A DNA stretch of 64,000 nucleotides, taken from the NCBI GenBank assembly GCA_044221725.1, contig JBGAON010000005.1, forward strand, positions 269,344-333,343. Reading direction: 5' to 3'. Under the pieces are notes generated by a model. That model saw only the letters and a program-made list of their open reading frames with translations. It was not told where the DNA came from and did not search any database. Source of the stretch: Elusimicrobiota bacterium. Lineage in GTDB: Bacteria; Elusimicrobiota; Elusimicrobia; F11. This document shows positions 32,852-63,581 of the stretch, piece after piece; the first letter of the stretch is position 1; each line of letters starts with the position of its first letter. A program made the translations under genes and the position numbers.

Positions 32852-33127
32852 ATGTCCAATACGGTAAAAATTAACGACGCCGAGAAACCCACGTCACCCA
32901 CCGGCAAAAAGCCATCGCCGCGCGTGGCGTTTGTTAATTTCGATCAATGCACCGGCTGCGAAGCGTGCATTGCGGTCGCGCCGTGGGACAACTGCCTCCT
33001 CCGCCAAAGTGACCTGCCCGAAACGTCCCACGTAAAAACAAACAACGAGGCCTGCACCGGTTGCACGCTTTGCATGAAGATTTGTCCGTGGGATGCCATT
33101 ACGATGGTTCCGCGGCCTTCGGCCTAA
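32852..33127 (+). CDS. 4Fe-4S dicluster-type ferredoxin; integration target of the element
   Basis: CTGCEACIAVAP and CTGCTLCMKICPWDAI; the last 15 codons are duplicated in recoded form at 63537-63581. Confidence 0.9.
   Translation: MSNTVKINDAEKPTSPTGKKPSPRVAFVNFDQCTGCEACIAVAPWDNCLLRQSDLPETSHVKTNNEACTGCTLCMKICPWDAITMVPRPSA
33083..33093 (+). other. attL core TGTCCGTGGGA
   Basis: Identical 11-mer at 63537-63547; both open the same CPWDAIxMxPRP reading frame. Confidence 0.85.
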
Positions 33128-33360
33128 GATTTTTTCGCGTCCTATTTCCCGCCGAATTAGCCTCCACTAAAGTCCGTCCCCAAAAACTCGATTCGCCCGA
33201 CGGAAAACGCCAACGTCGTCGATAAAATGCAACACGTTTGACAGTTCGTTGGTGAGCTTTTCTGCCCAAAACCAACCGATTTTATGGCTTGCCCAACGGG
33301 GTCTGATTCAAATGCCGCATGTGGGCGAATGTGGGTCATTGTTGCTCTTGTGAGACAAGG

Positions 33361-33444
33361 TGTATGGCAGTTTGTATGGCATTGCTCTGGAATCTGCCAT
33401 CAAAAGTGTATGGCAATTCGGATTTGTTGGCAGAGGTGATGGCA
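33361..33444 (+). repeat. Putative integrase arm-type sites (TGTATGGCA direct repeats)
   Basis: TGTATGGCA at 33361, 33373 and 33407; variants TGTTGGCA 33425 and TGATGGCA 33437. Confidence 0.7.
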
Positions 33445-33545
33445 ATCTGAGCCAGGTTGTGATTGCCGAGGTGCGAGTGAGTGTTTCCATCGAATGGCCC
33501 GGACTATATTCGGCGAATGGGTTGTCGTGCTAGAATGCGGTTCTA

Positions 33546-34364
33546 ATGTTGCCCAATCCCCTCTATGCTAAAGAGTCCAGCGAATTCTGGGCTCTCGTCA
33601 GATCTTCTTCTGAGAAGTTCGGCTATTCGAAACGGAAAGATAATCTATTGAAGCGATTTTCAATTGAGGACCTCGATGTTTTTAAAGAGCGTTTTCCCAT
33701 CGATTCCAAACTATGCAAAACGGTTGTAGATTATTTGAACTTTCGAGCTGAAGTGTTGGAGAAAAAGGTGCTCCCCAATCTGATGGATCGGCTTGAAGCT
33801 AAGAAAGAGTTTGAGAAATTATTGGGCAAGTATAAGCCCAAATTTCCTTTGGTGATGAATAAACAGAAGGGAGAGAAGCGTCATTACAATTATCTTTCCT
33901 GCATGGTGAATATTATCGCTGAAAAGCTCTTAGCTGATAAACCCTGCAACTTTAGCCCACGAGGGTTGTGTGTTCTGACCGACAAAGAAGGAAGACCAAT
34001 TAAGGTTTTATCTCGATGGTTGGATGGCGCGTATCCAGACGTCATAAATCCAGTAGCTATTTGGGAGATCAAGGAATATTACGGAACAACCACATTTGGA
34101 AGTCGCGTTGCGGATGGTGTTTATGAAACCCAGTTGGACGGATATGAGATCAATGAGGCTGAAAAAATATCCAACAAACGGATAAAACATTATTTATTCG
34201 TCGATGATCGGCGAACTTGGTGGGACATGGGAAAATCATATCTTTGTCGTATGATCGACATGTTGCACATGGGTTTTGTTGACGAAATAATTTTTGGAAG
34301 GGAAGTGGTTACTCGTTGGCCCGAAATTGTCCGATCTTGGGATTGCGAATCACCAAGTAAGTAA
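33546..34364 (+). CDS. Putative restriction endonuclease (PD-(D/E)xK-like)
   Basis: LDGAYP...AIWEIKEYY motif; converges on and overlaps a DNA methyltransferase gene. Confidence 0.6.
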   Translation: MLPNPLYAKESSEFWALVRSSSEKFGYSKRKDNLLKRFSIEDLDVFKERFPIDSKLCKTVVDYLNFRAEVLEKKVLPNLMDRLEAKKEFEKLLGKYKPKFPLVMNKQKGEKRHYNYLSCMVNIIAEKLLADKPCNFSPRGLCVLTDKEGRPIKVLSRWLDGAYPDVINPVAIWEIKEYYGTTTFGSRVADGVYETQLDGYEINEAEKISNKRIKHYLFVDDRRTWWDMGKSYLCRMIDMLHMGFVDEIIFGREVVTRWPEIVRSWDCESPSK

Positions 34365-35204
34365 CAACCTTTCTTTTACATCTTCGCCGATCATTACCTC
34401 GCCGCCATTCTGAAATCTTTTTAGCATCGAACTGCTTCCTCCAATCAAGATTTCTCGTTCGAATAGGCCCTCTGGAATGCCCAAGTTAATTACTTTCTTC
34501 CCTGATTTTTTGTGCCCGTCAATTGAGAGGGCCACCTTTGCACCGCGATCCTTGCAATCAATAATTGACTCAATAAGATCGGGAAGTTTAAACGATTGAG
34601 CGCCGTAAAGTATTGCCTGTGAATCCACATAAGGAGGGTCGCAGTAAATCAGGTCGCCTGATTTTGCCATGTTCATTGTTTCGGTAAATGGCTGATTAAT
34701 AAAACGTGTGAACTGAACACGTTCTTGCCATTCAAAAGCTCTTTGCGCAAATGATTCCGGGGGAATAGGTTTATGAGGGCCCACCGGAGTGCTGATGGTT
34801 CCTTGTTTTGTGAATCGAATCACGCCCCCGTAACACGTTCTGCTGATAATCAGTAGGTCGCAGGGGTTGGGATTGGCATTGTATCGAGCCAAGGTCTCAC
34901 GATAAATTACTTCCTTGTTTTCCAGTAGTTTCGGAATTACATCAGAATAATAATTGATTAATGTCTCCGGCTCCCTTTGGATGAGTTGCCAGAGGTCAAT
35001 CAATGGCGACAGCGTATCGCCTGCGATTGCTTTATCTGGTGAGAGTGTTGCCAGAATTGCGCCAGTCCCAATAAATGGCTCTATGAATGTTTCGTATGAG
35101 TCTGGGAAATGAGAAACGATTTCGTGCGCGTATTTGTATTTGCTGCCAATCCATTTTAGAAGTTGTCCATTCGGCTTGCTTGGGACGAATACTGCTGGTG
35201 TCAT
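34350..35204 (-). CDS. Dam-like (D12 class) N6-adenine DNA methyltransferase
   Basis: LKWIGSK, FIEPFIGTGAI motif I, IYCDPPY motif IV. Confidence 0.92.
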   Translation of the reverse strand: MTPAVFVPSKPNGQLLKWIGSKYKYAHEIVSHFPDSYETFIEPFIGTGAILATLSPDKAIAGDTLSPLIDLWQLIQREPETLINYYSDVIPKLLENKEVIYRETLARYNANPNPCDLLIISRTCYGGVIRFTKQGTISTPVGPHKPIPPESFAQRAFEWQERVQFTRFINQPFTETMNMAKSGDLIYCDPPYVDSQAILYGAQSFKLPDLIESIIDCKDRGAKVALSIDGHKKSGKKVINLGIPEGLFEREILIGGSSSMLKRFQNGGEVMIGEDVKERLLLTW

Positions 35205-35363
35205 AGGGAATCCTTATTAAAGTCAGAGGAGGGTTTGACCGAGTACGAGGGGTTTGAAGGGAGAACCAGACGATGATGAACACTATCACCGTTGATTGGG
35301 AATGAAATTAACAATATTCGTTGCATGCGTCAATTATAAACGTTCCTTCTGGCAAATTGAAAA

Positions 35364-36392
35364 CTAAACCGGGATTTTGCTGATATTTTTTAGATTCGGT
35401 AGATATGTCACAGCTTCTTTCAGGCTCGACGGCAACAAATGCGCGTAAATCTGTGTCGTGACGACAGTCGAGTGTCCCATCATCCGGCCAATTCGTAAAA
35501 GATCGACCCCCGCCATCGCCAAATGCGACGCAAACGTGTGCCTCAGCGAGTGGAGTGATCCCTTATTGATTCCGGCGCGCTTAAGTATTCGCGAGTAGGA
35601 TTGGGAGAACGCGATCTCTTTGTAGTACCAGGGGATAACGCGGCCCTCTCCGTTTTGTGAGGCAGCGCGCCAAATTTTGAGATGTTCGATCAACGCCGGG
35701 TGCATGGGAATTTCGCGCTCCTCCCGGTCCTTCGGGTGCCACTCTTCGTTCGGCTTGATACGCACAATCCCCGCTTGGAAATCCACGTCTTCCCACTTCA
35801 AGTTAAGCATCTCGCCACGCCGAAGCCCCAGATAGACCCCCAGATTAATGGCCGTTTGCCATAACGGATCCGCCGCCTTGAGAAGCGAATCGATTTCCTC
35901 CAGAGTGTAGAACACGGGGCGCTTTTTTACAGTCGGCATTTTTCGAACGCCCCAAATGTTGGAAGAGGCGTAGCTCCATTCGCCAGCTTTCTTCATGGCG
36001 GACTTGACCGTGACCAATTCGCGGTTGATGGTGGAGGCTTCAATCCCTTGATTCTTTCTGGTGAGCTTGAAGTCTTCCAAGTACTCTGGCGTCAAATCTC
36101 GTAACGTCCTTATAGGCATATATTTTCTGATGTTGGAAAAGACGACCCGAACTCGCACCACAGATGCGGGGGCCATGTTGGCCTCGCAATAGTTCATGTA
36201 TTGAGCTACAAAATCCTCCCAGAGGATTTCTTTTTCCGCTCCGTTCTTTTTGGCGTCGAGCCTTTTCTCGATGTCAGCCATTTCAATCCGCGCCAGGCGG
36301 ATATTGCTTCCCAGTGATTTTTCCTTCACCTTCCCGTCTTCCCGCCAATAGGCGGAATACGAATTTCCTCGTTGCCGTAATGCGACTGCCAT
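35364..36392 (-). CDS. Tyrosine integrase
   Basis: N-terminal arm-binding-like domain, STINREL, GLRRGE, HSLRHTFAS, MGHS, TQIYAH; catalytic R-H-R-H-Y set intact. Confidence 0.96.
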   Translation of the reverse strand: MAVALRQRGNSYSAYWREDGKVKEKSLGSNIRLARIEMADIEKRLDAKKNGAEKEILWEDFVAQYMNYCEANMAPASVVRVRVVFSNIRKYMPIRTLRDLTPEYLEDFKLTRKNQGIEASTINRELVTVKSAMKKAGEWSYASSNIWGVRKMPTVKKRPVFYTLEEIDSLLKAADPLWQTAINLGVYLGLRRGEMLNLKWEDVDFQAGIVRIKPNEEWHPKDREEREIPMHPALIEHLKIWRAASQNGEGRVIPWYYKEIAFSQSYSRILKRAGINKGSLHSLRHTFASHLAMAGVDLLRIGRMMGHSTVVTTQIYAHLLPSSLKEAVTYLPNLKNISKIPV

Positions 36393-36395
36393 AAG

Positions 36396-36599
36396 TCAGA
36401 CCCCCCGTTTTATTATTCGATGCAGACGAACCCACTGCTCCAACGCCTCCATCTCGACGCGAATAATCCGCTCTCCGGATTTTACCGCCCGAATTTTTCG
36501 AAGGCGAATCCATTCCCTCAACGTGTAGGGGGAAACGCGAAGCCATGCGGAGGCTTCTTTAACGGTGAGTAGTTTGTTCGTCTGCCCTGTTGTTTCCAC
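36396..36599 (-). CDS. Excisionase-like HTH protein
   Basis: LLTVKEASAWLRVSPYTLREWIRLRKIRAVK; directly upstream of the integrase. Confidence 0.85.
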   Translation of the reverse strand: METTGQTNKLLTVKEASAWLRVSPYTLREWIRLRKIRAVKSGERIIRVEMEALEQWVRLHRIIKRGV

Positions 36600-36653: not shown

Positions 36654-38021
36654 CTATGCCAAGTCTTCGACGTAGCTGATTCGCGGAGCAATTCGCATTT
36701 CCTGGACCGCCTGAAGGCTCATATATAGCGCGTCCAGGAGATCGTCGCGGCCGCGGGGAAAATTGACGAGTTCCTCTTCCAAATCCGGCAAGCTCTCCGG
36801 CAACCGAATGGCTCCATTTTCAAAGAGGACAGCGAGGCTTCGGATGCGCCGCTGTTTGTCGCCCGTGGTCGTGATGCCTTTGATGGGCAGGCGGGCGGTC
36901 GCCTCATCGACGCGCAACACCTGAAGCATGGATTGTTGGTAAGCGTTATTCTCTATGCAAACCAAGGTTGGTTTCCAAATGTGGCAGAACCGCTTGATAG
37001 TTGTGACTTGTTCCGGGAATTGAATATGAGCTCGGGTTGCTTCTAAGACGTAGGCATCCTTTTCGCCTTTTGGAATGCCGACAACAACGTATCCAAACCT
37101 TGAATGGGACTCCTTGGATCCGGACGCCAAATCAACGCCGATGTAAATATTCATGTCTTCGGGCCGCACGGTATAACGGCAAGAGCGAAGCCATTCCTGC
37201 TTAAACTCACTTTCCTGTACGGCGACATCGTTCAGCATTTGTAGGGAATAAGAACTGGCTCCCATCATGTTCCTTAACTCTTCCAGCTTTTGTTCCGAGA
37301 ACCGTTCGGGGAAAAGAAAATGTTTCTTGCCCTCTTCGTCTTTCCACTCGGCGCGCTGGACAATCTTTTTCCAATGATTAAATCCAGGCGTGCTGAGTAT
37401 GTGGCCGTAAAGGTCCTGCTGGTGCCATCGTGTGCCCACGATGCAAAGCTGACCGTCAGGCTCAAGCGATGGAAGGATGACACCGGTAAACCAGTCCAGT
37501 AATTTCTCTCGTTGCCCGGGCGCGTAGGATTTGGTGTTGGCCACCACGTCGTCCAGAATGATGAGATCGTTGTGCATGGAAACCAGATTGCCCATCACAC
37601 CGCCACAGGCAATGGATGGTTCCTTCACAACACGGGACCGAGGAATGGTGATGCTGTCTTCCGTCCACTTGGCGGCATTGGCATCCCAAGTGCCGTGGAG
37701 CTTTCGGAAGTTCTCATTCATGGTGATGTGCTGTTTGATCGCGTCCAATAGCTTCCGCGCAATCCCTTGCGTTTCGGCGATTATGAGAACGCGCAGATTG
37801 AGGTTTCTGGCCAGCCGCCAAAGCGGATAGCACGTGGTGACGACGGTCGACTTGAGATGGCCACGTGGAGCCAACAATAGGAGGTATTGGTTCTCCAACA
37901 ACGCTTGGTACCAGTCGATGTGAAGTCGAGTGAGCGCCTTGTAATCCAACACGTCCCGGCTGAACGCGAAAAGATCCTCAAGATGATCCACCGGCAGGTT
38001 TATTTTCTCTGGCTGTTTCAT
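36654..38021 (-). CDS. Phage terminase large subunit
   Basis: APRGHLKST Walker A, LIILDD Walker B, VGTRWH, GVDLA and DDLLDAL nuclease acidic residues. Confidence 0.9.
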   Translation of the reverse strand: MKQPEKINLPVDHLEDLFAFSRDVLDYKALTRLHIDWYQALLENQYLLLLAPRGHLKSTVVTTCYPLWRLARNLNLRVLIIAETQGIARKLLDAIKQHITMNENFRKLHGTWDANAAKWTEDSITIPRSRVVKEPSIACGGVMGNLVSMHNDLIILDDVVANTKSYAPGQREKLLDWFTGVILPSLEPDGQLCIVGTRWHQQDLYGHILSTPGFNHWKKIVQRAEWKDEEGKKHFLFPERFSEQKLEELRNMMGASSYSLQMLNDVAVQESEFKQEWLRSCRYTVRPEDMNIYIGVDLASGSKESHSRFGYVVVGIPKGEKDAYVLEATRAHIQFPEQVTTIKRFCHIWKPTLVCIENNAYQQSMLQVLRVDEATARLPIKGITTTGDKQRRIRSLAVLFENGAIRLPESLPDLEEELVNFPRGRDDLLDALYMSLQAVQEMRIAPRISYVEDLA

Positions 38022-38257
38022 GATTCGGCCCCCTCGATCAATGGTTGTTCAAAGAATCGTTCTAAATGTTGGTCCGCGTTTTCATAGGGAGAAATTCGTG
38101 AGTTAGAACGCTGTGGGAAACGGTTACCCCTTTGTGTTCGAGAGGCGGGCGAGAGGGGAGCATCCCCGCATCGATGGGCAAAATTTACGCTTTTCAAAAT
38201 GCCCTCCTCGAAATTCCTCTTTCCCGACGGAGAAATGTCAATTGAATGTGCATTCAA
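38018..38257 (-). CDS. Small hypothetical protein
   Basis: ATGA overlaps with both neighbours; no recognisable motif. Confidence 0.4.
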   Translation of the reverse strand: MNAHSIDISPSGKRNFEEGILKSVNFAHRCGDAPLSPASRTQRGNRFPQRSNSRISPYENADQHLERFFEQPLIEGAES

Positions 38258-38850
38258 TTGCCTCCAGGCGCACCACGTTGCGCCGTTTCGGTGGTGTTGC
38301 CGATGGATTTTGGGCCGGCGGGATCAGCGGCCGCCTCCCTTTTTTGTGGTTCGAGACCAGAGGCGCCTAGGTTCGTTTCGACGATTTTTTCTTTCAGGGG
38401 GTCGGCGGATTTCACTTCCTTGTGCTGGCGAAGGATCATGAGCGTATCCTCGCTCGCCGACCAGCCTGAAGAAGCAGGAGCGCTTTGGGCCTTGAGGGCT
38501 TGCGCGGCCTGGGACATTTTGTCGGCCAAAACCGCAATGGTGAGCGCCAAATCGCGGATGCCCTGCGGTTTTTCTTTTTTGAGTTCGCCATCAAGCCGAT
38601 GGAAGGTCAATCCAATGCTTGTCCAGCAGTGATCGATGAACGCTTTTGACCGCTTGTCTGTTTTGGATTGGAGGGAGGTCGGCATGCGGGACGTTAGGGA
38701 TTGATCCGCGTGACTCTTCCAATAAGACAGAAGCCCCTTGCTGATGCCCAACTCTTTGGCAACGTCGGTGAGAGGTTTGCCCGCGGCCAATTTCGCCAAT
38801 GCTCCTTTGATTTTTTCCGGGCTGTGACGCTGGGGACTTTTATTTTTCAT
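38254..38850 (-). CDS. HTH protein, terminase small subunit-like
   Basis: GKPLTDVAKELGISKGLLSYWK HTH, helical IRDLALTIAVLADK segment; upstream of terL. Confidence 0.6.
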   Translation of the reverse strand: MKNKSPQRHSPEKIKGALAKLAAGKPLTDVAKELGISKGLLSYWKSHADQSLTSRMPTSLQSKTDKRSKAFIDHCWTSIGLTFHRLDGELKKEKPQGIRDLALTIAVLADKMSQAAQALKAQSAPASSGWSASEDTLMILRQHKEVKSADPLKEKIVETNLGASGLEPQKREAAADPAGPKSIGNTTETAQRGAPGGN

Positions 38851-40748
38851 TGGGGTTGGCCTCCATTTGGTTTGGGAGGAGGCAGAACAACGCGTGACCC
38901 GGGGAAGTGATCTTGCGCCATTTTGATCACTTCGACGGATTTTTCGTCGTAATACTGGCGAAGCACTTTCTCGTGGTCATCAGAACCATTTTCCAGCGCG
39001 GTGGGGATATCAAGAGGAAGTGAACCTGTGAACCTAGGTGAACTATTCTCCCTCGTCCTATTATTGGACTCATCAAGGAGGTCCGATTTAGGTTGGGGTG
39101 AAAAAGGTTCACTGACGTTCACAGGTTCACTTTTGGGGGAGGGGGCTTTTTCCCCATTTCCCCCTTTTACCCCTACCGCATACCAACGCTCAGCGGATCG
39201 TCCCGCCGTGGGAACTTGTCTGAAGTACACTAAACCGCGGGTTTGTAGAAGGCCAAGGGCGGAACCGAGACTCCCGGATTTGTGGTGACCAAAAAGACGA
39301 GAACTGATTTCGGTCCGGGTCAAACCTTCGGGAGATGAGCGCAAAATGGAGAGGACTTCATCCGCCAATGGATTTCCGAGACTGTCGCCAAATATGTACA
39401 AGGCTGATTCTTCCGCGTAGCGCCACACTTCGAGCGCAGCTTCAAGGTGTTCTTTTCTGATGACGGTTGATTGATCGAGGAGCGCATAGATCAGCGCCAA
39501 ACGCATCACCTGAGCCTCGGCGCGAGAGATCACAGCGCCGAACAGACCTGGCTTACCCTCCGACAGTTTCTCGTATACCTCACGCCACAGCTTTCGAGCC
39601 TCAGGATCGCGCACAATGCACGTGCGCCCCAATTGTTGAGCAAACATCGCCGCTTTTTCAAACGCGAGATCCAATGGGCCAAAATCGACCGACCCAATGT
39701 CTCCACCCTCCGGCAGAACTTTTGACCGGCGGACACAGAAGAAAAGAATGCGGTTTGCAAAGCCATTGCCGATCTCCGTTCGATCCAAATAACGGCACAA
39801 CTCCTCCTTGGTAATGTGACCGCACATACTGATGTGAGCCTCGGTGGCTTTGGCGGGGGTGTTTTTGGTGAGAATACGAAGCCCACCGGTGTCCCACGCC
39901 TGGCGCACGACACCTGAGAGGCTGTTGCCATCGCGTTCCAGGACTCGCAACGTGGTGGCGAATTCCGGCTGAAGAGCCATGAGCCTCTTGTCAGAGACAC
40001 CAGGATCAACTTCAACCATCTGGTAATCTTCAACTTTCCCTTTCTTTTTGATGGGTTCTCGCTGCTGCACCGCGTCACGCACTGCATAGATGAGTCCTTC
40101 ACCGGAAGAAAGTCCTGTTTGTACGCAGTCGTCGACCCAATGACCGTCTATGGCTCTCATTCGTTCGCGGACATGTCCCCAAGACGTTCCTTTCCGGCCC
40201 TTCGCTGTCTCGCCGACCAAAACCGCGAAGAGGTTGGTGAAGTGACAGTCGGCTTCTGCTCTAAAGTGCGCCCCTCGGCCCACCACATTGCCGAAGGCTA
40301 CGAGTAGCTGGCTAAGGAGACCGACACGATCCGCCTCGGTATGAGGCTCCACCAAACGGACAAATTGTCCAGCAAGACCATGGAAGGCCTGCTCGCCCAA
40401 GGGTGACGGCCATTTTTGAGAAAACACTGTGGGGGAAGAAGGGGGATATGGGGAATAAGGGTCTGGTGCGTAGCGGCTGATGCTTTCGGAAATGGTTTTA
40501 ATCTCTTTTTCAGGGAGCGGTGGAGAGCAGTGGTGTTTATTTTCTTCCATCAGCGCGGCCAGGATGGCCTCTTGACCCATCCCTTTCCGGCGCATAGCGC
40601 CCGCCATGCTGGCAAGGCTTGCGTTTCTAGACCCTTCTGGAATCAATGCCGCCCCATTCATGGCCGGATGTGGCGCGGTTGGGAGTAAAAGCCCGTTTGT
40701 GAGCCAAGCGGGAGCCGGGGCCAGTGGCGTTAAATCGTTGGTTTCCAT
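38847..40748 (-). CDS. PriCT-like + DUF3987-like primase/helicase-associated replication protein
   Basis: IPEGSRNASLASMAG...PPLPEKEIKTISESI (PriCT), VGETAKGRKGT P-loop-like, NGFANR, C-terminal winged helix. Confidence 0.75.
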   Translation of the reverse strand: METNDLTPLAPAPAWLTNGLLLPTAPHPAMNGAALIPEGSRNASLASMAGAMRRKGMGQEAILAALMEENKHHCSPPLPEKEIKTISESISRYAPDPYSPYPPSSPTVFSQKWPSPLGEQAFHGLAGQFVRLVEPHTEADRVGLLSQLLVAFGNVVGRGAHFRAEADCHFTNLFAVLVGETAKGRKGTSWGHVRERMRAIDGHWVDDCVQTGLSSGEGLIYAVRDAVQQREPIKKKGKVEDYQMVEVDPGVSDKRLMALQPEFATTLRVLERDGNSLSGVVRQAWDTGGLRILTKNTPAKATEAHISMCGHITKEELCRYLDRTEIGNGFANRILFFCVRRSKVLPEGGDIGSVDFGPLDLAFEKAAMFAQQLGRTCIVRDPEARKLWREVYEKLSEGKPGLFGAVISRAEAQVMRLALIYALLDQSTVIRKEHLEAALEVWRYAEESALYIFGDSLGNPLADEVLSILRSSPEGLTRTEISSRLFGHHKSGSLGSALGLLQTRGLVYFRQVPTAGRSAERWYAVGVKGGNGEKAPSPKSEPVNVSEPFSPQPKSDLLDESNNRTRENSSPRFTGSLPLDIPTALENGSDDHEKVLRQYYDEKSVEVIKMAQDHFPGSRVVLPPPKPNGGQPQ

Positions 40749-41266: not shown

Positions 41267-41279
41267 TCTCCTCTCCCAC

Positions 41280-41351
41280 AAAAAAAGGCGCTGTCATCGG
41301 CGGATCAAATAACCCGCCAACAACAGCGCCTCGGTTTGTCCGACAACGCTA
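41280..41351 (-). promoter_or_regulatory. Antiterminator-like hairpin overlapping an intrinsic terminator (copy 1)
   Basis: Minus strand TAGCGTTGTCGGACAAACCGAGGCGCTG..., then a 20-bp stem with G-U pairs, TATTTG loop and T run. Confidence 0.75.
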
Positions 41352-41356
41352 AATAG

Positions 41357-41533: not shown

Positions 41534-41629
41534 TTGATGCTCCGCATGTTCATAGTTCTCATATTCAACTCCAAATCCCTATATGTTAGCGATATATGTA
41601 CAAAAGCTACCTCAAAAGGCAAAAAAATA

Positions 41630-51142: not shown

Positions 51143-51147
51143 AAGTT

Positions 51148-53522: not shown

Positions 53523-53609
53523 TTCTCGGTTGTATTTTCTGAGAATCTATGCGGATATATTCGCTCTCGAGGGTTAAAATATCTCTACGCACTCACTAAA
53601 GGAGGAGAC

Positions 53610-54893: not shown

Positions 54894-54896
54894 AAA

Positions 54897-55295: not shown

Positions 55296-55387
55296 GCAGG
55301 CTCCAATTAAATGATTCTTGTTTTCGATAACGAAATTCGATATTAACAATACAATAATACGTAGCGATAGAGGGCTGGTTCGCCAAG

Positions 55388-55690
55388 ATGGAAAAAGAAT
55401 TTTACACAGGCTTCATTCGCCTTCACATTCTCTATCACGCGACGAAAGAGCCAATCTTCGGTTTGGGAATTATCGAGGAATTGTCTCACCACGGCTATCG
55501 CCTAAGTCCTGGAACGCTGTATCCGATTTTGCATGGTCTCGAGGGCAAAGGATACTTGAGGTCCAAGATGGCAAGAATAGGCAAACGAGGTCGGCGAGTG
55601 TATAGAGCCACATCTAAGGGCCGAAAGGCGTTGAGCGAAGCAAAATCCAAAATTCGCGAGATCTTCTTTGAAATATTGGAGGAGACATGA
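55388..55690 (+). CDS. PadR-family regulator
   Basis: LHILYHA, LSPGTLYPILHGLE, RRVYRATSKG. Confidence 0.92.
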   Translation: MEKEFYTGFIRLHILYHATKEPIFGLGIIEELSHHGYRLSPGTLYPILHGLEGKGYLRSKMARIGKRGRRVYRATSKGRKALSEAKSKIREIFFEILEET

Positions 55691-56265
55691 AAAATAAGAC
55701 GGTATCTATTTTGTGGGGATTTATTATTGCGGGATCGTTCACGTCTTCACTTAGAGCGGCTCATAACGACAACGTTCCAGTCCGTTATTTTCTCCCTGAC
55801 GCGGCGGGTTCTGCAATCGTGACCATATCAACTGAGAATGTCCCATCAGCCTCAGCGTCCATTACTATTCTAACGCAAGCCGTGTCCATAATGGAAACGG
55901 GACCCGCTGCAACGATCAAGGCGTTCGGTGAAGTATATGCGTTCTCGCCATCTTTCTTCATGTTAAGAAAGGATGTCCCAACGCGATTAGAATTCTGGAA
56001 TCTTCAGCCCGACGATGTGCATCAATTTTTTCTGGTTGGTCCGAACTCAGAATCGTTGCTGTTTGTGGAACTGCCTGCTCTAAGGAAAACCTCTTACGTA
56101 CTTACATTTCATCGAGAAGGGCTTTATTCCTTTCAATGCCCAGTGCATGGAGCGGCGATGTCTGGGCAACTTTTCGTACTTCCTCCGGAGAAAAATTCGA
56201 CGGATTCAGAGGGATCTCGTTCGACAGGGTTAGGCGCATGGTTGAGGCATCACATAGGAAAATAA
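55687..56265 (+). CDS. Exported cupredoxin-domain protein
   Basis: Signal peptide, DVHQF, GLYSFQCPVHGAAMSG type-1 copper ligand pattern. Confidence 0.8.
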   Translation: MKNKTVSILWGFIIAGSFTSSLRAAHNDNVPVRYFLPDAAGSAIVTISTENVPSASASITILTQAVSIMETGPAATIKAFGEVYAFSPSFFMLRKDVPTRLEFWNLQPDDVHQFFLVGPNSESLLFVELPALRKTSYVLTFHREGLYSFQCPVHGAAMSGQLFVLPPEKNSTDSEGSRSTGLGAWLRHHIGK

Positions 56266-57458
56266 GCGGCGGTTATCGCCTTTTTGCTTCATCGGCATTC
56301 ACATTTGTGTTCACGATGGGCATCGTGAATCTTTTTGCCGACATGACTTATGAAGGCGGGGCAAGCCTAAATGGTCCCTTCATGGGATCTCTCGGCGCAA
56401 GCGCAGCGATCATCAGCATCGTGGCGGGAGTCGGCGAGTTTTTGGGATACACGCTGCGGTTTGTGTCGGGTTATTTTAGCGACAAGACCGGCAAACATTG
56501 GTTGATAACGTTTGTTGGCTACACCATAAATTTATTGGCTGTTCCTGCAATGGCTCTGGCCGGACATTGGAAAGTGGCGGCTGGCCTTATTCTGTTGGAA
56601 CGCATTGGCCGAGCAATTCGCAAACCAACAGTGGAAGCAATGCTCTCCTACACGACACACGAACTGGGTAAAGGTTGGGTCTATGCGCTGAACACCGCGC
56701 TTGATGAGATTGGAGCCACTCTGGGACCGCTTGTGGTCGCACTCGTTTTATTTCTTAAAGGAACCGAGCGGACGGCGTACGCATCTCTTCTTATCACGGC
56801 GATGCTGACGTTGGCTACTCTATCGGCGGCGCGATTCATCTTTCCGTTGCCAGCCGATTTAGAGAAAGGGCGTACAGCTACCACGAAAGGATTTACGAAG
56901 CGTTATTGGTTTTTGATGGTGGCTGGAGTTTTTTTCGCAGCGGGTCTGCTAAGTTATGAACTGATCGCGTATCACTTGGCCAGCGCGAAGGTGGTTCCCA
57001 GAGCGTTTGTCCCGGTTTTGTTGGCCTTTTCCACGGGGTTTGGGGTGATAGCAAGTTTGGTGTTCGGTAAAGCCTATGACAGGAAAGGATTGCCCATATT
57101 GCTTTTAGCGGTTTTTCTCTCCTCACTTTTCGCGCCCGCCGTGTTCCTCGGAAAATTCCTGGGATTGATTTTTGCGATGGTCTTTTGGGGGATCGGCTAT
57201 GCAACTCAGGATACATTGCTCAAGGCTCTTATTGCGAGTGAACTGCCAGAAGGAAAGCGAGATTTTGCTTTCGGACTTTTTTATATCGGTTACGGCGTCG
57301 GATGGTTGATCGGCAGTATTGTGAGTGGACTTCTATATCGAGATCACCAAACATCCCTGATTTTATTCGCCAGCGTTGTACAGCTTTGCTCGATTCCTTT
57401 TTTCATTATCGCTGAGAGATCGAGCGCAAGCGATCCTGGAATCGCTCAACCGTACTAG
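56238..57458 (+). CDS. MFS transporter
   Basis: LFADMTYEG, SGYFSDKTG, ERIGRAIRKP; about 12 TM; start uncertain. Confidence 0.9.
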   Translation: MVEASHRKISGGYRLFASSAFTFVFTMGIVNLFADMTYEGGASLNGPFMGSLGASAAIISIVAGVGEFLGYTLRFVSGYFSDKTGKHWLITFVGYTINLLAVPAMALAGHWKVAAGLILLERIGRAIRKPTVEAMLSYTTHELGKGWVYALNTALDEIGATLGPLVVALVLFLKGTERTAYASLLITAMLTLATLSAARFIFPLPADLEKGRTATTKGFTKRYWFLMVAGVFFAAGLLSYELIAYHLASAKVVPRAFVPVLLAFSTGFGVIASLVFGKAYDRKGLPILLLAVFLSSLFAPAVFLGKFLGLIFAMVFWGIGYATQDTLLKALIASELPEGKRDFAFGLFYIGYGVGWLIGSIVSGLLYRDHQTSLILFASVVQLCSIPFFIIAERSSASDPGIAQPY

Positions 57459-57565
57459 CGTTTGGATGATAAGATCCATAGCGCATCTCTCGCCTGAATC
57501 CATTTCGAAAAGAGATAATGCGATAGATATTTAATGGATTGCCGGTCAAGGTAGACGCCAATCCA

Positions 57566-57626
57566 TAGCGTTGTTGGGCAAACCAAGGCGTTGCTTTTCC
57601 CATGTGGGATTTGCGACGCCTTTTTT
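57566..57626 (+). promoter_or_regulatory. Antiterminator-like hairpin overlapping an intrinsic terminator (copy 3)
   Basis: TAGCGTTGTTGGGCAAACCAAGGCGTTGCTTTTCCCATGTGGGATTTGCGACGCCTTTTTT. Confidence 0.75.
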
Positions 57627-57643
57627 ATTTTAAGGAGGCGACG

Positions 57644-58342
57644 ATGGGATCGCGCAAGCCGCTTGATTTGGAATTTCTACAACGGGGGCCACGGATACGC
57701 GCGGGCCGGGTGAAAGTGTTGGTCGCGTTTGGTGACGTGACTGGTTTCGGCGCATGGACACGCCGAGGCAGCAATTCGCCGGAGGAGTTCAAAGACTTCA
57801 TGGTGCATCTTTACAAGGAATTCATCCGATTCAGAAACGGCAATGGATATTTCGTGAAGCTCATGGGCGATGGATTCATGTGTATAACCGAACTCGATCA
57901 GAGAAACGCCAAGGCGAAGACGCTTGAATTCTTGAGTCATGCCGTTGACCTCGAATCAGCCATTCAAAAGATCGTGACAAGTACATTCCCCGCACCTGGA
58001 TCATTCAGAATTCGGATCGCGGCCGGACATGTTTGGAAAATGGTGGCCAGCCGGCCGGGGCAAGTAACGGCGCAGACCGATTATTTGGGATACGCAATAA
58101 ATCTGGCGGCGCGCCTTTTGGAGATAGATCGTGAATCACCGATTTTGTGCCATGAGAGTGTTCGTAAGATTTTGAATGGAGCGATTCGAGGTGGCGCGGA
58201 GTTCGGCCTTAAGCCAGTCCAGATCCGAAGCCGATGTCCCCGAGGCGTGGATCCGGAAGACATCCGTACGTTGTGGAAGGTCTATCCTTTGATCGCTTCG
58301 AAAATGGCCATGCCCACCAACAATAAAACCATCCCCAGGTAG
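57644..58342 (+). CDS. Stand-alone class III nucleotidyl (adenylate-type) cyclase
   Basis: FGDVTGF, VKLMGDGFM, DYLGYAINLAARL; AAGGAGG RBS before ATG 57644. Confidence 0.8.
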   Translation: MGSRKPLDLEFLQRGPRIRAGRVKVLVAFGDVTGFGAWTRRGSNSPEEFKDFMVHLYKEFIRFRNGNGYFVKLMGDGFMCITELDQRNAKAKTLEFLSHAVDLESAIQKIVTSTFPAPGSFRIRIAAGHVWKMVASRPGQVTAQTDYLGYAINLAARLLEIDRESPILCHESVRKILNGAIRGGAEFGLKPVQIRSRCPRGVDPEDIRTLWKVYPLIASKMAMPTNNKTIPR

Positions 58343-58631
58343 AACAGGACGACGCTGTCGAACAATTCGTAGTAATTGCGGGCCCACCATTTTCGAAATT
58401 CGCAGCAAATTGAGCCATTACTATCCATTGTTGCCCACCTCCTTTGATTCGGCGATGTGTCGCCTATCACGACTGGGACAGTGGTAGGACTTCGCGGGAC
58501 AATCAAGTCATTCGTGGACTCTGTGCCAGAGAATGTTGGTCGGGCCTACTTCGCTTAATGTCAAAACTCGATCGTGACATTGGTTCAAAGCGGGCAGTCA
58601 CAATCGCTATCGCGATGGAGGGAATTGCTTT

Positions 58632-59519
58632 TTAGCGATTAAGTCTGAAATTTCGGAGAAGGTATTGAACCAGAGCGGTGTGGCGCCGGCGTTTGTTAAC
58701 TATCAACCAATCCGTTTTCACGATCCCTGTTGGATGTCGCCCCAATCGGACGAGCCTTCCTTGCCGCAAATCGTCATCGGCTGATACCCTGAGAAGAGGC
58801 GCGGCTCCGAGTCCCCTCACAGCGGATATACGCAATACGCCGTCGTCCTCAATCGTGGCGACGACCTGCCCTGCTATTTTGTGGCGTGCCAGAAAGCGTT
58901 CCACGCTTTGCGAAATCGTGTTGGCGGATGTGGGCATCAACAAAGGGATTTTGGATAAATCTTTCGGGAATACTTTTACCTGGCGGGCAAGGTCAGGGGT
59001 TGCCATGAAGTCTACCTCGAGCTCACCAATCTTTATGCTCACGAATTGTTCTTTCTGCGCTCTCACTCCTCGATCCAACAGGACCACATCCACGGAATAA
59101 GTTCGCAATTGGTCCAGAAGTTTATCTTCCGGACTTACCTGCATTTCGACTCGTGTTCCGGGCTTGTGACGATGAATTGTTTCAATGAGACTTAGCGATA
59201 CCTGTTTGGAAACTTGCGTGCCCACTCCGATAATCAATGCTTTTTTCTGTGCTGGTCGCGTCTTCAATGAATCCAGTAATTCCTCCGTGACTCCAAAGAT
59301 CTCACTCGCATAATCCAGAACCATCCTTCCTTCCGCAGTGAGCGCGTGCGGTTTTTTATCGCGATCAAACAGTTTTGTCCCCAAGAATTTCTCCAGCTGG
59401 ATAATCTGTGCGCTGACCGTCGGTTGGGCGAGGTGAAGTTTCTCGCACGCCCTGGCAATGCTGCCTTCCTTGGCCGCGACCCAAAAGTAATAGAGATGTT
59501 GATGGTTCAGAAGGATCAT
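58632..59519 (-). CDS. LysR-family regulator (NhaR-like)
   Basis: LNHQHLYYFWVAAKEGSIARACEKLHLAQPTVSAQI. Confidence 0.9.
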   Translation of the reverse strand: MILLNHQHLYYFWVAAKEGSIARACEKLHLAQPTVSAQIIQLEKFLGTKLFDRDKKPHALTAEGRMVLDYASEIFGVTEELLDSLKTRPAQKKALIIGVGTQVSKQVSLSLIETIHRHKPGTRVEMQVSPEDKLLDQLRTYSVDVVLLDRGVRAQKEQFVSIKIGELEVDFMATPDLARQVKVFPKDLSKIPLLMPTSANTISQSVERFLARHKIAGQVVATIEDDGVLRISAVRGLGAAPLLRVSADDDLRQGRLVRLGRHPTGIVKTDWLIVNKRRRHTALVQYLLRNFRLNR

Positions 59520-59610
59520 TGGTTTAACCTATATTAGACCAAGTTATTATCCATTTGGCAGATAAATAGTTGTGTGGGAGAATGCCTTTGAATGAAAGGA
59601 GAACGTAACC

Positions 59611-59967
59611 GTGCTTAAAGTCAAACGAGCTTACGAACCACCCACGAAAGGAGACGGGTACCGTGTTTTGGTCGACAGAATATGGCCGCGAGGGCTGAAG
59701 AAAGAGCAACTCTCGTTGAATGAATGGGCAAAAGTCCTCGCTCCGAGTTCGGAATTGCGCAAGTTTTTTGCTCACGATCCTAAGCGATGGGAGATTTTTC
59801 AGTCTCGTTACCACCGGGAGCTCCATTCTAGCGCCGAAGCAATTGAAAAACTGCATGCTTTGACGCAACTCGCGCGAAAGAGAACGGTCACCTTGATATA
59901 TAGCGCGCACGATGAGAACTATAACCAGGCCGTTGCCTTGAAGAGAGTCATAGACGGCCAAGAATAA
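59611..59967 (+). CDS. DUF488/YeaO-family protein
   Basis: KRAYE, DGYRVLVDRIWPRG, APSSELRKFF. Confidence 0.9.
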   Translation: MLKVKRAYEPPTKGDGYRVLVDRIWPRGLKKEQLSLNEWAKVLAPSSELRKFFAHDPKRWEIFQSRYHRELHSSAEAIEKLHALTQLARKRTVTLIYSAHDENYNQAVALKRVIDGQE

Positions 59968-59986
59968 GGGACAGAAGGAGGACGCA

Positions 59987-60514
59987 ATGAAACTGGGATT
60001 ATTTTATGGAACCACAACCGGATTCACGGAGACAGCAGCGGAAACTGTGCGCGGTTTGCTAGGAGACTCGCTATCGGTCTATAAGAACATCAGTGAATCA
60101 TCTCCAGAGGACCTGGCGTCCTGCGACAATCTTATTCTTGCCATTCCCACTTGGGACGTCGGCCAGCTGCAATCGGATTGGTGGGCCTTTTTTCCGAAAC
60201 TGGACTCCATCGATTTCCACGGAAAGAAAGTCGCCTTCATTGGCGTCGGTGACCAATATGGTTATCCGGACACCTTTCTGGACGCCATGGGGGATCTCTG
60301 GAAGAAAGTTGAGGAGCGCGGCGGCCAGTTGATTGGGCAATGGCCCACCGAAGGGTATGACTTCTCAAGTCCCAAACCTGTCGTAAATGGAAAATTCATC
60401 GGGCTTGCGTTAGATCCCGTGAATCAAGACGAAATGAGTGGTGAGCGGATAAAGAAATGGGTGGACCAACTTAAGGCTGAGCTTCAGCTTGGTGCGGTCG
60501 TAACCTCAAAATAA
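59987..60514 (+). CDS. Long-chain flavodoxin
   Basis: YGTTTGFTE, IPTWDVG, GDQYGYPDTFLDAMG, GLALD. Confidence 0.93.
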   Translation: MKLGLFYGTTTGFTETAAETVRGLLGDSLSVYKNISESSPEDLASCDNLILAIPTWDVGQLQSDWWAFFPKLDSIDFHGKKVAFIGVGDQYGYPDTFLDAMGDLWKKVEERGGQLIGQWPTEGYDFSSPKPVVNGKFIGLALDPVNQDEMSGERIKKWVDQLKAELQLGAVVTSK

Positions 60515-60529
60515 AAAAGGAGAAAAATC

Positions 60530-61183
60530 ATGACACAGACATTGCAGATTCCCTATGCGGCTTACCAAGTCCGGCAAGACTTGAAGCCAAAAGACGTTGA
60601 AGGATTGTCGGAAAAGCTTATAGATCAGCATTGGAAACTTTACGAAGGCTATGTAACGAATACCAATCTGCTCAATAAGCTGATTTGGGATACCGCCGAC
60701 GCCAACAAAGAGCTGAACAACGCGGAACATTCCGAAATTCAGCGGCGGCTCGGATTCGAATACAACGGGATGGTTTTGCACGAATATTATTTCGGCGCGT
60801 TGCGAAAAGGAACCACGCTTCCATCCTCATCGGAGCTGAGATCAAAACTTGCCGAAGATTTCGGAAGCTTTGAGCGTTGGAAGAAACAATTCACGGAAAT
60901 TGGAAAATTCAGAGGCGTAGGATGGGTCATCCTGAACTACGATCCCGCCTCAAAAAGGCTTAACAATTTCTGGGTTACGGATCATGAAATTGGAAACGTC
61001 GCTGGTTTTCTCCCGATTCTCGCGATGGACGTCTGGGAACATGCATATGTCCTCGATTATGGATCTTCCTCAGCGGCAGGAACCGGAAGAGCGGCGTATC
61101 TGGAAACGTACTTCAAGAATATTGATTGGGACGTCGTTTCTGAGAGGTTGGCGGTCGCTCAAGCGCAGAAATCAACGAGATAG
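60530..61183 (+). CDS. Fe/Mn superoxide dismutase family protein
   Basis: HWKLYEGYV, LHEYYF, MDVWEHAY. Confidence 0.9.
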   Translation: MTQTLQIPYAAYQVRQDLKPKDVEGLSEKLIDQHWKLYEGYVTNTNLLNKLIWDTADANKELNNAEHSEIQRRLGFEYNGMVLHEYYFGALRKGTTLPSSSELRSKLAEDFGSFERWKKQFTEIGKFRGVGWVILNYDPASKRLNNFWVTDHEIGNVAGFLPILAMDVWEHAYVLDYGSSSAAGTGRAAYLETYFKNIDWDVVSERLAVAQAQKSTR

Positions 61184-61192
61184 GGTATCGCC

Positions 61193-61642
61193 ATGGCGGA
61201 GAGAATTGATTACAAAAAATCGCCCGGATTCGGCGCCATGGCCGGTCTGGAAAGATATGTGCGCCAATGCGGATTGGAAACCCGGCTTTTGGAATTGGTG
61301 AGGCTTCGCGCCTCACAAATCAACGGCTGTGCCTATTGCGTGGATATGCACACCAAAGACGCGCGATCGGAAGGCGAAACTGAGCAACGGCTTTACGCGG
61401 TTTCTGTGTGGCGAGAGGCGCCATTTTTCACGGAACGTGAACGGATGGCGCTCGAATGGACAGAATCATTGACGCTTATTGCCGAGCGAGGCGTTCCCGA
61501 TCAATTGTATGAGAAGGCGCGTCAGAGTTTCAGCGAAAAAGAGATCGTCGATCTTTCACTAGCGATTATCGCGATTAACGGATGGAATCGCTTGGCCATT
61601 GGTTTCCGTTCTGTTGTGGGATCTTATGAGCGGAGCGCATAA
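61193..61642 (+). CDS. Carboxymuconolactone decarboxylase/AhpD-family protein
   Basis: RASQINGCAYCVDMH, INGWNR. Confidence 0.92.
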   Translation: MAERIDYKKSPGFGAMAGLERYVRQCGLETRLLELVRLRASQINGCAYCVDMHTKDARSEGETEQRLYAVSVWREAPFFTERERMALEWTESLTLIAERGVPDQLYEKARQSFSEKEIVDLSLAIIAINGWNRLAIGFRSVVGSYERSA

Positions 61643-61752
61643 AAATTGGATTGATAATGAACACATCTACAATCGCGTTGTTGGATCTTCCGCAGCGGCT
61701 GCAGAAATCAACCCGATAGGCGAAGGCTACGTCCCGAAAGGAGAAAATCACC

Positions 61753-62337
61753 ATGAAATCAAAATCAATCTTTGCTGGAGTTGCATCGGCGATTATTGCT
61801 GTTGGGATAAACTCATCGGCTGCTGATAAGAGCGATCTTCATTCCCATGAAGGCCATTCGTCGGGGCCGACGTCATCATTGACAATTCCCCAATCGCTTC
61901 GTGTAGAGCATGAGCATCTCCATCAGAGACTTGAAGCGCTTGTTAATAAGACCGGCACCGTTGGGCAATCCGCCAAAAAGCTGGCGGCCGTTCTGGATCC
62001 ACATTTTGAAAAAGAGAATGCCGAAGCCCTTCCTCTCCTTGGATTGTTGGCGCCAGTTGGCCGCGGGGAAATAAGCGAAACGATGCGGCCGGCCATAGAG
62101 GCAAGCAGAACGCTCAAGGCTGCCATGCCCCAAATGATTGCCGAGCACAAGGCGATTAAACTAGCGCTGGATGACCTGCGGAAGGCGGGCGAGAGTTCCA
62201 AAGACAACGACGCAACGAAGTTTGCGGAAGAGCTGTCGCTTCACGCGCAGACGGAAGAGGATGTTCTTTATCCAGCGGCGATTCTCGTTGGAGCTTACAT
62301 CGAAACGCAGTTGCGCTCTTCGATACCAAGAAAATGA
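61753..62337 (+). CDS. Exported hemerythrin-like (HHE) protein
   Basis: Signal peptide, EHEHLH, HFEKEN, EHKAI, HAQTEE. Confidence 0.75.
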   Translation: MKSKSIFAGVASAIIAVGINSSAADKSDLHSHEGHSSGPTSSLTIPQSLRVEHEHLHQRLEALVNKTGTVGQSAKKLAAVLDPHFEKENAEALPLLGLLAPVGRGEISETMRPAIEASRTLKAAMPQMIAEHKAIKLALDDLRKAGESSKDNDATKFAEELSLHAQTEEDVLYPAAILVGAYIETQLRSSIPRK

Positions 62338-62792
62338 GCACACCAACGATTAGTGAGTTTTATTCAGACGATCACACTCGGCTTGATGGCTTGTTCGAAC
62401 AGTATCTTAAGCTGAAGGAAAACGAGCCAGACCGAGCGATAAAGGTTTTGGAGGAGTTCAAATTCGGCCTTGAACAACATATGGCATGGGAAGAGGCGAT
62501 TCTTTTTTCTGAGTATGACGCCCGAATTGCTTCGGCGGAAGACGAGAGCCCAACCGTTGATTTGACGTTCGAGCATCAGCAATTGCGCGATTATCTTGAG
62601 AGTATACAGCGGAAGTTGAAAGAAAAGGATCAAGGTTTGGAACTGGAAAAGGATGAAGCGCGCTTCGCTGAGCTATTGGCGGCCCACAACTTTGCTGAGG
62701 AAACGGGACTCTACGTAAAGCTCGACGAAGCCCTCACCGATGAGGACCGTTCCGAAATCCATAAGCGGATGAGAGACGCCGCCTTAACTTAG
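62334..62792 (+). CDS. Hemerythrin-like (HHE) protein
   Basis: DHTRLD, HMAWEE, EHQQL, HNFAEE. Confidence 0.85.
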   Translation: MSTPTISEFYSDDHTRLDGLFEQYLKLKENEPDRAIKVLEEFKFGLEQHMAWEEAILFSEYDARIASAEDESPTVDLTFEHQQLRDYLESIQRKLKEKDQGLELEKDEARFAELLAAHNFAEETGLYVKLDEALTDEDRSEIHKRMRDAALT

Positions 62793-62801
62793 CGGAAAGG
62801 A

Positions 62802-63263
62802 TTACTGTTCCTCCGACAGGCCCTTCGCTATTGACTTCGACCAAATCCGAAGGGCATCTATATCGTTTTGGGAGAGACGAGCGTCCGGATGAGGTGGACG
62901 GTAGAACCAGGGTGGCATCTCTCGCTCGGCTACTTGGTCCCAGCTTTCTTTCAAATTTTTCGTCTGCTGCTTCGTGGTGTAGCGATTCCAACTAGAGAAG
63001 TTGAGTTCCTCGCGACCCACGCGCACGTCCCGCTCGATAAGCCATGACACCGGTGCGAGCCGGCTATACCAGGGCCAAACGGTTTCATTCGAGTGGCAGT
63101 CGTAACACGCTCGGCGGAGAATCGATCGCACTTCCGGCGACGCCGGAATTTCGGTTTCAACCGGAGGATTGGTTCGATCGACCGGCACAAATTGTATCGC
63201 AACGAAGGCGAAAATCGCCACGATAGCGGTCCACTTAACGGCTCGTCTCATCGGTGATCCCAT
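62802..63263 (-). CDS. Haem-binding domain (cytochrome c-like) protein
   Basis: ACYDCHS CxxCH, WPWYS, LNFSSW, MPP; start uncertain. Confidence 0.85.
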   Translation of the reverse strand: MGSPMRRAVKWTAIVAIFAFVAIQFVPVDRTNPPVETEIPASPEVRSILRRACYDCHSNETVWPWYSRLAPVSWLIERDVRVGREELNFSSWNRYTTKQQTKNLKESWDQVAEREMPPWFYRPPHPDARLSQNDIDALRIWSKSIAKGLSEEQ

Positions 63264-63459
63264 AGGCACATGATAGTTTCTTCATGGGCATCGACGTATG
63301 AGCGCCATCATAGTGAATGGTTGGCTTAGAAGTTTAACGGCCTCGCACGGTTTAAGGCGAGAAAACGTATAATTTCCTGGCTGATCGATCGAAATTTCGT
63401 GACTGCACCATCAGGAATCGAGTCGAAGATTATGCACTTGCCGAATTTGGCAGGCGAAG

Positions 63460-63480
63460 TGGATGGCAGTTTATATGGCA
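63460..63480 (+). repeat. Putative arm-type site pair at the right end
   Basis: TGGATGGCA-GTT-TATATGGCA; same 12-bp period and GTT spacer as 33361-33381. Confidence 0.7.
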
Positions 63481-63536
63481 AGGATGAAAAAATGCATCGA
63501 AAATCATTGATAATCAAATATCGCCGTTTTCGTGAC

Positions 63537-63581
63537 TGTCCGTGGGACGCTATCGTTATGATTCCCCGTCCAACCACGTAA
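63537..63581 (+). pseudogene. attR core plus displaced ferredoxin 3' end (CPWDAIVMIPRPTT*)
   Basis: Same length and 10 of 14 residues identical to the ferredoxin C-terminus CPWDAITMVPRPSA*. Confidence 0.88.

Follow-up and report, generated by a model that had tools for sequence, protein, structure and literature searches.

A stretch of 64,000 nucleotides from an Elusimicrobiota bacterium (assembly GCA_044221725.1, contig JBGAON010000005.1, positions 269,344 to 333,343; hereafter the window, from genome G000) contains a 30.5-kb mobile element, element 1, which adjoins the 3' end of a ferredoxin gene and lies at about 33087-63540 (G, C and L numbers are our handles for genomes, contigs and loci). 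We conclude that a clade of lambda-type tyrosine integrases very probably recombines at a short core in this gene, and that the elements so inserted restore the end of the gene and accrete in tandem behind it. According to this scheme, the integrase would recombine at CGTGGGA, right after the last cysteine codon of a conserved single-copy gene, and the phage-type attachment site (attP) of each element would carry, immediately to the right of the core, a substitute in the same reading frame for what remains of the gene. Integration would give an uninterrupted gene that ends in a new tail, and would recreate the bacterial attachment site (attB); because attB is recreated, the next element would enter at the same point and move the older ones downstream, and every junction in the resulting array would consist of a right arm, the core, a silent tail and a left arm. 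The window would then hold the newest, integrase-bearing and satellite-like element together with the start of a second one, and if any proximal block were excised, the next tail would become joined to the gene.

The ferredoxin is encoded by one full-length copy in G000. The 11-mer TGTCCGTGGGA occurs inside this gene at 33083-33093 and again at 63537-63547; these two matches compare with a chance mean of 0.03, and none of 100 shuffled sequences gave two. The left copy encodes CPWDAITMVPRPSA and the right copy CPWDAIVMIPRPTT, each followed by a stop codon, which are of the same length and identical at 10 of 14 residues, while 9 of the 11 third positions after the 11-mer differ between them. The initial annotation of this DNA had reported the repeat and the equally long, conserved tails with mostly different third positions, and on both points our results agree with it. 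It had further taken the right copy for the displaced original end of the gene, so that a single element would be bounded by a left attachment site (attL) at 33083 and a right one (attR) at 63537, with the crossover at the Cys codon. Both copies and the limits of the element are indeed real, and the GC content, which is 0.54 to the left of the element, drops to 0.50 between the two copies. Nevertheless, this single-element model is very improbable, as the DNA downstream of the right copy is itself the left end of an element: it is homologous to the left end of element 1 (33150-33239 versus 63605-63694, 74%), and from 63548 onward 280 nt can be aligned at 89% identity with a unit inside the array of the genus-mate G002 (G002:C12:94631). 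Moreover, three more tails follow on contig C5, and the Cys codon is missing from 12 of 18 silent junctions. The right copy is thus a tail plus the left arm of the next element, and therefore deleting element 1 would not yield an empty site. The element that had been drawn at 33083..63581 is retained with the narrower extent given above.

The end of the window is also the end of contig C2, where an insertion sequence (IS) inside element 2 breaks the assembly. The other end of this IS is found at the start of contig C5, which has the inverted ends and a 3-bp CAA duplication in common with the end of C2 (the start of contig C1 does not), and both IS flanks are contiguous in G002 (C12:94488-95073). 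Furthermore, TGTATGGGA repeats matching the left arm of element 2 are found at its right end (C5:5382). The array goes on along C5 with three further tails, whose cores lie at C5:5436, 8141 and 9589, and an nhmmer profile search recovered exactly five tail copies in G000 (E<=1e-5; next match 0.026). The order of the locus is the ferredoxin gene, the integrase-bearing element 1, and then elements 2 (~5.9 kb without its IS), 3 (2.7 kb) and 4 (1.4 kb), after which a frameshifted tail closes the array. When the ancestral host tail was sought in G000, no copy could be identified as such, because tail 5 matches a type present three times in G002. Co-oriented units bounded by att copies were likewise found in other genomes, with 13 copies in G002 and 4 in G036 compared with 5 in G000. 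As G000 and its relatives are metagenome-assembled genomes from mixed samples and the array crosses a contig break, an assembly or binning artefact has to be weighed. It is hardly credible, since the array copies differ from one another, single contigs carry arrays in G002, G036, G023, G244 and G230, and the same junction types are present in contigs of three other studies.

Comparison of the junctions in the family of G000 (18 silent and 6 gene-attached) revealed no invariant sequence other than CGTGGGA and parts of the tail. The 7-mer, which covers Pro-Trp-Asp codons, sits directly after the last Cys codon; at the Cys position itself, 10 of the silent copies have Ser and 2 have Thr, Cys being retained in 6, and the first base of the Pro codon, just before the core, varies in 3 of the 18. 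The usual overlap region of tyrosine integrases is seven bases long. We infer that the crossover core is this 7-mer, and place the exact cut positions by the same reasoning; the core had been thought to span the Cys codon, whereas the invariant sequence lies after it. The last 11 ferredoxin codons derive from element 1, and Cys78, which we take to be the remote ligand in the CxxCxxCxxxCP pattern of the ferredoxin fold, appears from the junctions to be supplied by the host and not by the element. An imperfect inverted repeat surrounds the core, and the first ~7 bases past it are probably a core-type binding half-site (predicted). In addition, nine-base direct repeats occur at fixed offsets from the core in both arms, at +271 to +362 on the left and at -54/-42 or -81/-69 on the right. 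The repeat variant (TGTATGGCA, -GGA or -CCA) matches at both ends of elements 1 and 2 of G000 and of four G002 units, while left-arm repeats have been lost in other units, including elements 3 and 4 of G000 and several units of G002. These repeats may represent arm-type integrase sites. A tRNA and Rfam search of the region gave no match. The integrase is not of the integron type (IntI), the model TIGR02249 scoring 74.6 bits against a cut-off of 265; the junctions carry direct repeats of the putative arm type.

The integrase of element 1 has 75 matches in 62 of the 301 genomes of the class Elusimicrobia. We have defined a clade of 18 integrases, consisting of the 17 in the top band (E<=1.2e-73, at least 44% identity) and a partial match in G086 (56%). 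Thirteen of the 18 point at the ferredoxin gene or a silent tail 0.4-4.4 kb away, i.e. one each in G000, G001, G004, G114, G156, G116 and G086, two in G036 and four in G002. In a quick tree these 13 fall within a 19-row branch (SH-aLRT 83; subclades 98 and 99), separate from 16 lower-band homologs. The loci of these 16 (of 57 listed) were checked with 1.5-kb flanks, three of which were widened; a tRNA gene was found within 1.5 kb in 11 of them and a tail in none. Of the 161 more distant loci listed, 92 have at least 3 kb of downstream sequence; a 4Fe-4S motif was seen in 8, and the target ferredoxin only beside L194, a clade member. These scans of genome and metagenome contigs, which used the clade alignment and generic motifs, are controls and not a census. 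The site pattern itself was found in 48 of the 301 genomes, in 8 of them in two or more copies, and its reversed control in 0; 2 further multi-copy genomes were found among 38 of genus g48. A search of the phylum (401 genomes) found no new strong clade member, the best integrase outside the class (G338) lying at a tRNA-Leu. The best homologs that carry a name (L115, at 48%, P0005 and P0007) point to the class Elusimicrobia. The distant integrase at L126, 2.9 kb from a ferredoxin gene, was rejected, as it sits at a tRNA-Val beside a kor-type operon. Judged by these associations, the proposition holds that the clade targets the ferredoxin 3' end across the class Elusimicrobia, and so does the initial annotation's suggestion of a ferredoxin-targeting integrase family. 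Its expectation that homologs would stand beside ferredoxin genes with duplicated tails is borne out by the 13 and does not extend to every close homolog, that of G073 being near a tRNA-Gly. In a viral collection, there were two weak integrase matches and 1 and 20 loci with the tail patterns; a clade integrase accompanies none of these loci, and a ferredoxin only L310. On this 6.9-kb viral contig, which has no integrase, the gene for a related ferredoxin includes the CGTGGGA core too, its product ends in …CPWDAIEM…, and phage-like genes come immediately after it; it is possible that the ferredoxin site is also used outside the Elusimicrobia.

A putative empty site is seen in genus g48, where a gene encoding an RRM protein follows the ferredoxin gene after 20-150 bp in five genomes (G124, G216, G250, G258 and G152). 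In G230, both flanks common to these empty-site genomes (73-80%) are separated by ~18 kb on one contig; the insert begins with a pst-type unit and a complete silent tail, which further cargo and a degenerate tail follow. Over 229 nt the complete silent tail is of the empty-site type (82% to G250); the tail attached to the gene departs from that type after ~105 nt and is similar to the tails carried by the elements of G116 and G156. The sequences thus read as a C-terminal swap, in which a divergent tail displaced the genus-typical one. In four other g48 genomes (G146 on C75, G089 on C13, G234 and G112), foreign genes follow the ferredoxin gene and no second tail is recognisable, these genes occupying 2.7 kb before the RRM gene in G146; they are probably remnants of eroded arrays.

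Several observations weigh against the proposed mechanism. Five of the 18 clade integrases have no tail downstream: that of G005 has one 3.5 kb away on the opposite side, the contigs of G030 and G184 end 1.3 and 6.4 kb past the integrase, that of G073 lies 5.6 kb from a tRNA-Gly with an element-like end, and that of G019 has no tail within 14 kb. The tree of the clade comes from a quick search only. No empty site was found in the family of G000, all six genomes with the ortholog being occupied, and in none of G156, G089 and G230 does a silent tail directly abut the RRM gene. When the RRM gene was used as a route to the site, it was present without a tail before it in G156 and G089, no clear ortholog was seen in G116 and G086, and a contig edge intervened in G112. 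Finally, a search for the attP circle, which the initial annotation had proposed, covered 18 of the 28 loose ends in contigs of four runs, of which run X1 may be the source of G000, and found neither a circle of element 1 nor an excision join, contigs being prone to drop rare forms; the same contigs showed the same junction types and one alternative left end (…PAQ and a stop). With respect to two of the five integrases, we also observed that the last cargo gene of G184 is 85% identical to the gene adjoining the silent tail of G230, and that contig C124 of G073 (L076, L331) carries a 48%-identical integrase and an element at a tRNA-Gly with its own repeat variant TGTTAGCA, as though the target had been switched close to the root of the clade.

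The tails, in turn, seem to be maintained as protein. In the family of G000 they run 13-16 residues from the Cys position in 22 of 24 copies, the other two being frameshifted or extended, and in the six codons past the likely binding half-site the proportion of synonymous differences (pS) is 0.68 and that of nonsynonymous differences (pN) 0.11 (21 distinct sequences, non-independent pairs). Among host families with a long extension of the ferredoxin, the silent tails have ~74 residues (three in G036 and others in G023, G030, G244, G114 and G086). For ten same-genome pairs of these over 68 codons, the ratio of nonsynonymous to synonymous substitution rates (dN/dS) was 0.06-0.23 in seven and synonymous changes were saturated in three; two long-tail pairs were left out for length difference. 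One might suppose that this conservation reflects a DNA-binding constraint of the att site instead of protein function, as would apply to the first ~7 bases after the core if they form a half-site. Such an explanation of the tails has very little probability, since the codon-patterned conservation continues well beyond the half-site and the identity of the long tails falls to just 23-45% over the 60 nt after the stop codon. The codon pattern therefore indicates that the tails are conserved as protein under purifying selection. The dN/dS signal records selection while a tail is attached to the gene, not while it is silent; all tails would have had to be functional, because excision of a proximal block would join the next one to the gene. 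Selection of the tail as protein had been claimed before, on the ground that it brings the ligand Cys; the selection is supported, and the ground is not, as a ligand supplied by the host does not explain it. Within one subclade, integrases accompany short tails in G000 and G001 and long ones in G036 and G114, therefore the type of tail follows the host.

Ten positions (C33, C36, C39, C48, C68, C71, C74, C78, P79 and W80) are invariant in 29 ferredoxin orthologs. The first Fe-S motif is CTGCEACIAVAP, with Ala43 in place of the usual fourth Cys, and the invariant Cys48 may be a substitute ligand for it. Structure predictions were weak (pLDDT 40.8 and 56.7), and a fold search gave no match at E<=0.001, its ferredoxin-domain rows standing at 1e-3 and above; neither was used as evidence. 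Divergent from the ferredoxin gene lie genes for glycine cleavage, lipoyl synthase and dihydrolipoamide dehydrogenase (window 27686-32768), the last of which adjoins the ferredoxin gene in G001, G003 and G007 too.

Most units in the arrays have no integrase match: this applies to elements 2-4 of G000, to 8 of the 9 units on C12 of G002, and to units in G023, G036, G244 and G230. Such units retain att ends, and some have matched arm-type repeats. They might be short cassettes with both arms that are actively shuffled, a cognate integrase variant encoded elsewhere cutting them out and inserting them, and not merely decayed islands. Besides the absence of the integrase from so many units, this idea is favoured by the pairing of the arm variant across unit ends noted above, and by element 2 of G000 and a 1.5-kb unit of G002, which are alike at both ends (89% and about 81%) with different cargo in between. 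It is nonetheless a tentative idea that we consider somewhat doubtful, as the left-arm repeats are gone from several units, tail 5 of G000 is frameshifted, a circle was not seen in the contigs of the four runs, and erosion following accretion would look identical. A bolder and rather unlikely extension is that the array serves as a reserve from which C-terminal domains of the ferredoxin, as well as cargo, can be exchanged, and in which each integrase variant reads its own arm-repeat variant and moves integrase-less cassettes. If it were true, each move would alter the ferredoxin over its 11 to 75 C-terminal residues and give isoforms with different partners or redox properties, G230 being an example of a swap between two clearly different tails of ~70 residues.

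The features of the window are collected in the table below. The integrase has intact catalytic residues (R191, K221, H281, R284, H307 and Y316), and may still be active. The backbone encodes a large terminase subunit (phrog_38, E 5e-86), two small or helix-turn-helix (HTH) open reading frames (ORFs), a PriCT/DUF3987 primase-helicase, a Prim-Pol and an HTH protein; no capsid, tail or conjugation gene was found among 43 ORFs scanned against Pfam, 14 of them also against PHROGs. The DUF7687 protein and the Dam-family methyltransferase form a probable restriction-modification pair, and the XerD-like recombinase is possibly a dimer resolvase. Close relatives of the latter at G000 C3:98574-99619 and G002 C12:12650-13695 (79-85% DNA identity) suggest that the same backbone is present at another site. 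The cargo includes genes for a transporter, trehalose synthesis, MgtC, a major facilitator superfamily protein, regulators, flavodoxin, Fe/Mn superoxide dismutase, CMD, two hemerythrins and a haem-binding protein. A 115-nt intergenic repeat (89% identical) stands upstream of cargo genes at 53408-53522 and 57566-57680, with an inverted related copy near 41319-41351 and no Rfam match; it is possibly a regulatory RNA or promoter module. A 33-nt inverted repeat of GTGAACCT-type units at 39018-39132, within the primase-helicase gene, may be the origin of the element. Outside element 1, the end of contig C1 and the start of C2 (window about 1-13700) carry long internal repeats of a repetitive gene region, which are 70-89% identical over ~1 kb.

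Table 1. Coordinates of the ferredoxin locus, element 1 and the start of element 2 in the window
Feature	Position	Strand	Remarks
Target gene, 91-aa 2[4Fe-4S]-type ferredoxin	32852..33127	+	Pfam Fer4_21 (E 1e-12), Fer4
Cys78 codon, host side of predicted crossover	33083..33085	+	Ser/Thr codons in 12/18 silent junctions
attL core CGTGGGA, putative 7-bp overlap region	33087..33093	+	Invariant in 18/18 silent and 6/6 gene-attached junctions
Replacement tail from element 1 (…DAITMVPRPSA, stop)	33094..33127	+	Element-type left end comes next, as it does behind silent tails
Conserved motif at the left end of the elements	33150..33239	+	74% to 63605-63694; 76-85% to left ends in G002, G004
Left arm, three TGTATGGCA direct repeats (+274, +286, +320 from core)	33361..33415	+	Same offsets in G001-G004, G005, G007
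DUF7687 protein (+) and Dam-family adenine methyltransferase (-)	33546..35204		
Tyrosine integrase, 342 aa, pointing toward ferredoxin	35364..36392	-	Pfam Phage_integrase and SAM_5; PHROG 1
Excisionase-like HTH_17 protein	36396..36599	-	phrog_66
Satellite-like backbone	36654..42631	-	Pfam, PHROGs; gene order as in G030 contig C69
Second, XerD-like tyrosine recombinase	42686..43681	-	TIGR02225, 274 bits, under the 329.6 cut-off; same position in G030 C69
Cargo	44593..63269		GC 0.49 vs 0.54 left of element; parts 78-84% identical to G002 C12 DNA
Element 1 right-arm repeats TGGATGGCA, TATATGGCA (-81/-69 from core)	63460..63480	+	
Second core, attP-like, where the right end of element 1 meets the left end of element 2	63541..63547	+	Core CGTGGGA
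Element 2 silent tail (…DAIVMIPRPTT, stop), left-end motif, TGTATGGGA arm repeats (63816, 63828)	63548..63836	+	
IS end inside element 2, breaks assembly	63861..64000	+	Window end = contig C2 end

These results reveal a hotspot of integration that extends across a class, in a phylum that has been little studied and is mostly uncultured, and add a new pair of attB and integrase with a putative 7-bp core. Since the tails range from 11 to about 75 residues by host lineage and one integrase subclade serves both kinds, the elements must carry a host-matched domain; the system would thus be a clear natural case of mobile elements that keep a host-matched protein domain, with integration exchanging the C-termini of a host protein. 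The arrays, which amount to well over 100 kb of retrieved DNA in G002, are likely a main entry point for accessory genes in Elusimicrobia, and island-calling tools that need one integrase per island would overlook most of their units.

A ferredoxin gene is also the site of the fdxN element of heterocyst-forming cyanobacteria, in which the serine recombinase XisF acts and the gene stays interrupted until developmental excision. Unlike the Elusimicrobia elements, the fdxN element is not known to have a replacement tail or to form arrays; in our case the ferredoxin gene is intact with a full tail while the site is occupied, and no inactivation until excision takes place. Phage-inducible chromosomal islands (PICI) and other phage satellites are typically about 15 kb or less, with AlpA or divergent regulators and a small terminase only. 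Element 1 resembles phage satellites in having an integrase, an excisionase-like HTH protein, a Prim-Pol, a primase-helicase and a terminase and no structural genes; it differs from PICI in its 30.5 kb with a large cargo, its large terminase subunit and its second recombinase. Protein genes used by other tyrosine integrases include dusA, prfC, trmE and yicC. In the sections of PMC13626063 concerned with such targets, guaA and Fis are named and coding targets make up 39.9% of the mapped provirus sites; as far as these go, the ferredoxin system is alike in its site-specific integration into a coding sequence with the gene restored. The main texts of PMC12884075 (plus a supplement), PMC13626063, PMC12424338 and PMC9580842 do not name ferredoxin as a target in term searches, and our literature search found no description of a ferredoxin att site, the tables of large integration-site surveys, which may list one, being outside that search. 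Tandem accretion behind one single-copy gene is described in the relevant part of PMC3146451 for Dehalococcoides, where multiple repeat-bounded islands, many without integration modules, follow ssrA. The tandem, repeat-bounded and often integrase-less units at the ferredoxin gene are like these islands and the accretions of the ICESt family in that respect; unlike the ssrA islands as portrayed there, with a tmRNA target and serine recombinases, they occupy a protein gene, have tails that are coding sequence and depend on an integrase presumed to be of the tyrosine type at this site.

The closest counterpart is found at the 3' end of the E. coli icd gene, into which phage 21 integrates. The element e14 resides at the same place; in the passages of PMC13626634 devoted to it, the gene extends into the element, a C-terminal icdC fragment remains at the far end, and the changes are mostly synonymous and leave a working enzyme. 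The ferredoxin element likewise occupies the 3' part of a gene that encodes a protein and has a tail fragment at its far end, to the extent covered by those passages, and has the features of the e14/icd type, i.e. an intact tyrosine integrase near one end, the core within coding sequence at both ends, and an in-frame replacement tail. It differs from e14 in its target, in its integrase (best match in the phage collection 28.7%), in the stacking of its units, and in tails that can be ~70 residues long, with differences between them at as many as tens of positions. The mechanism is thus known from other genes, through e14 at icd and accretion at ssrA, while the ferredoxin target looks undescribed.

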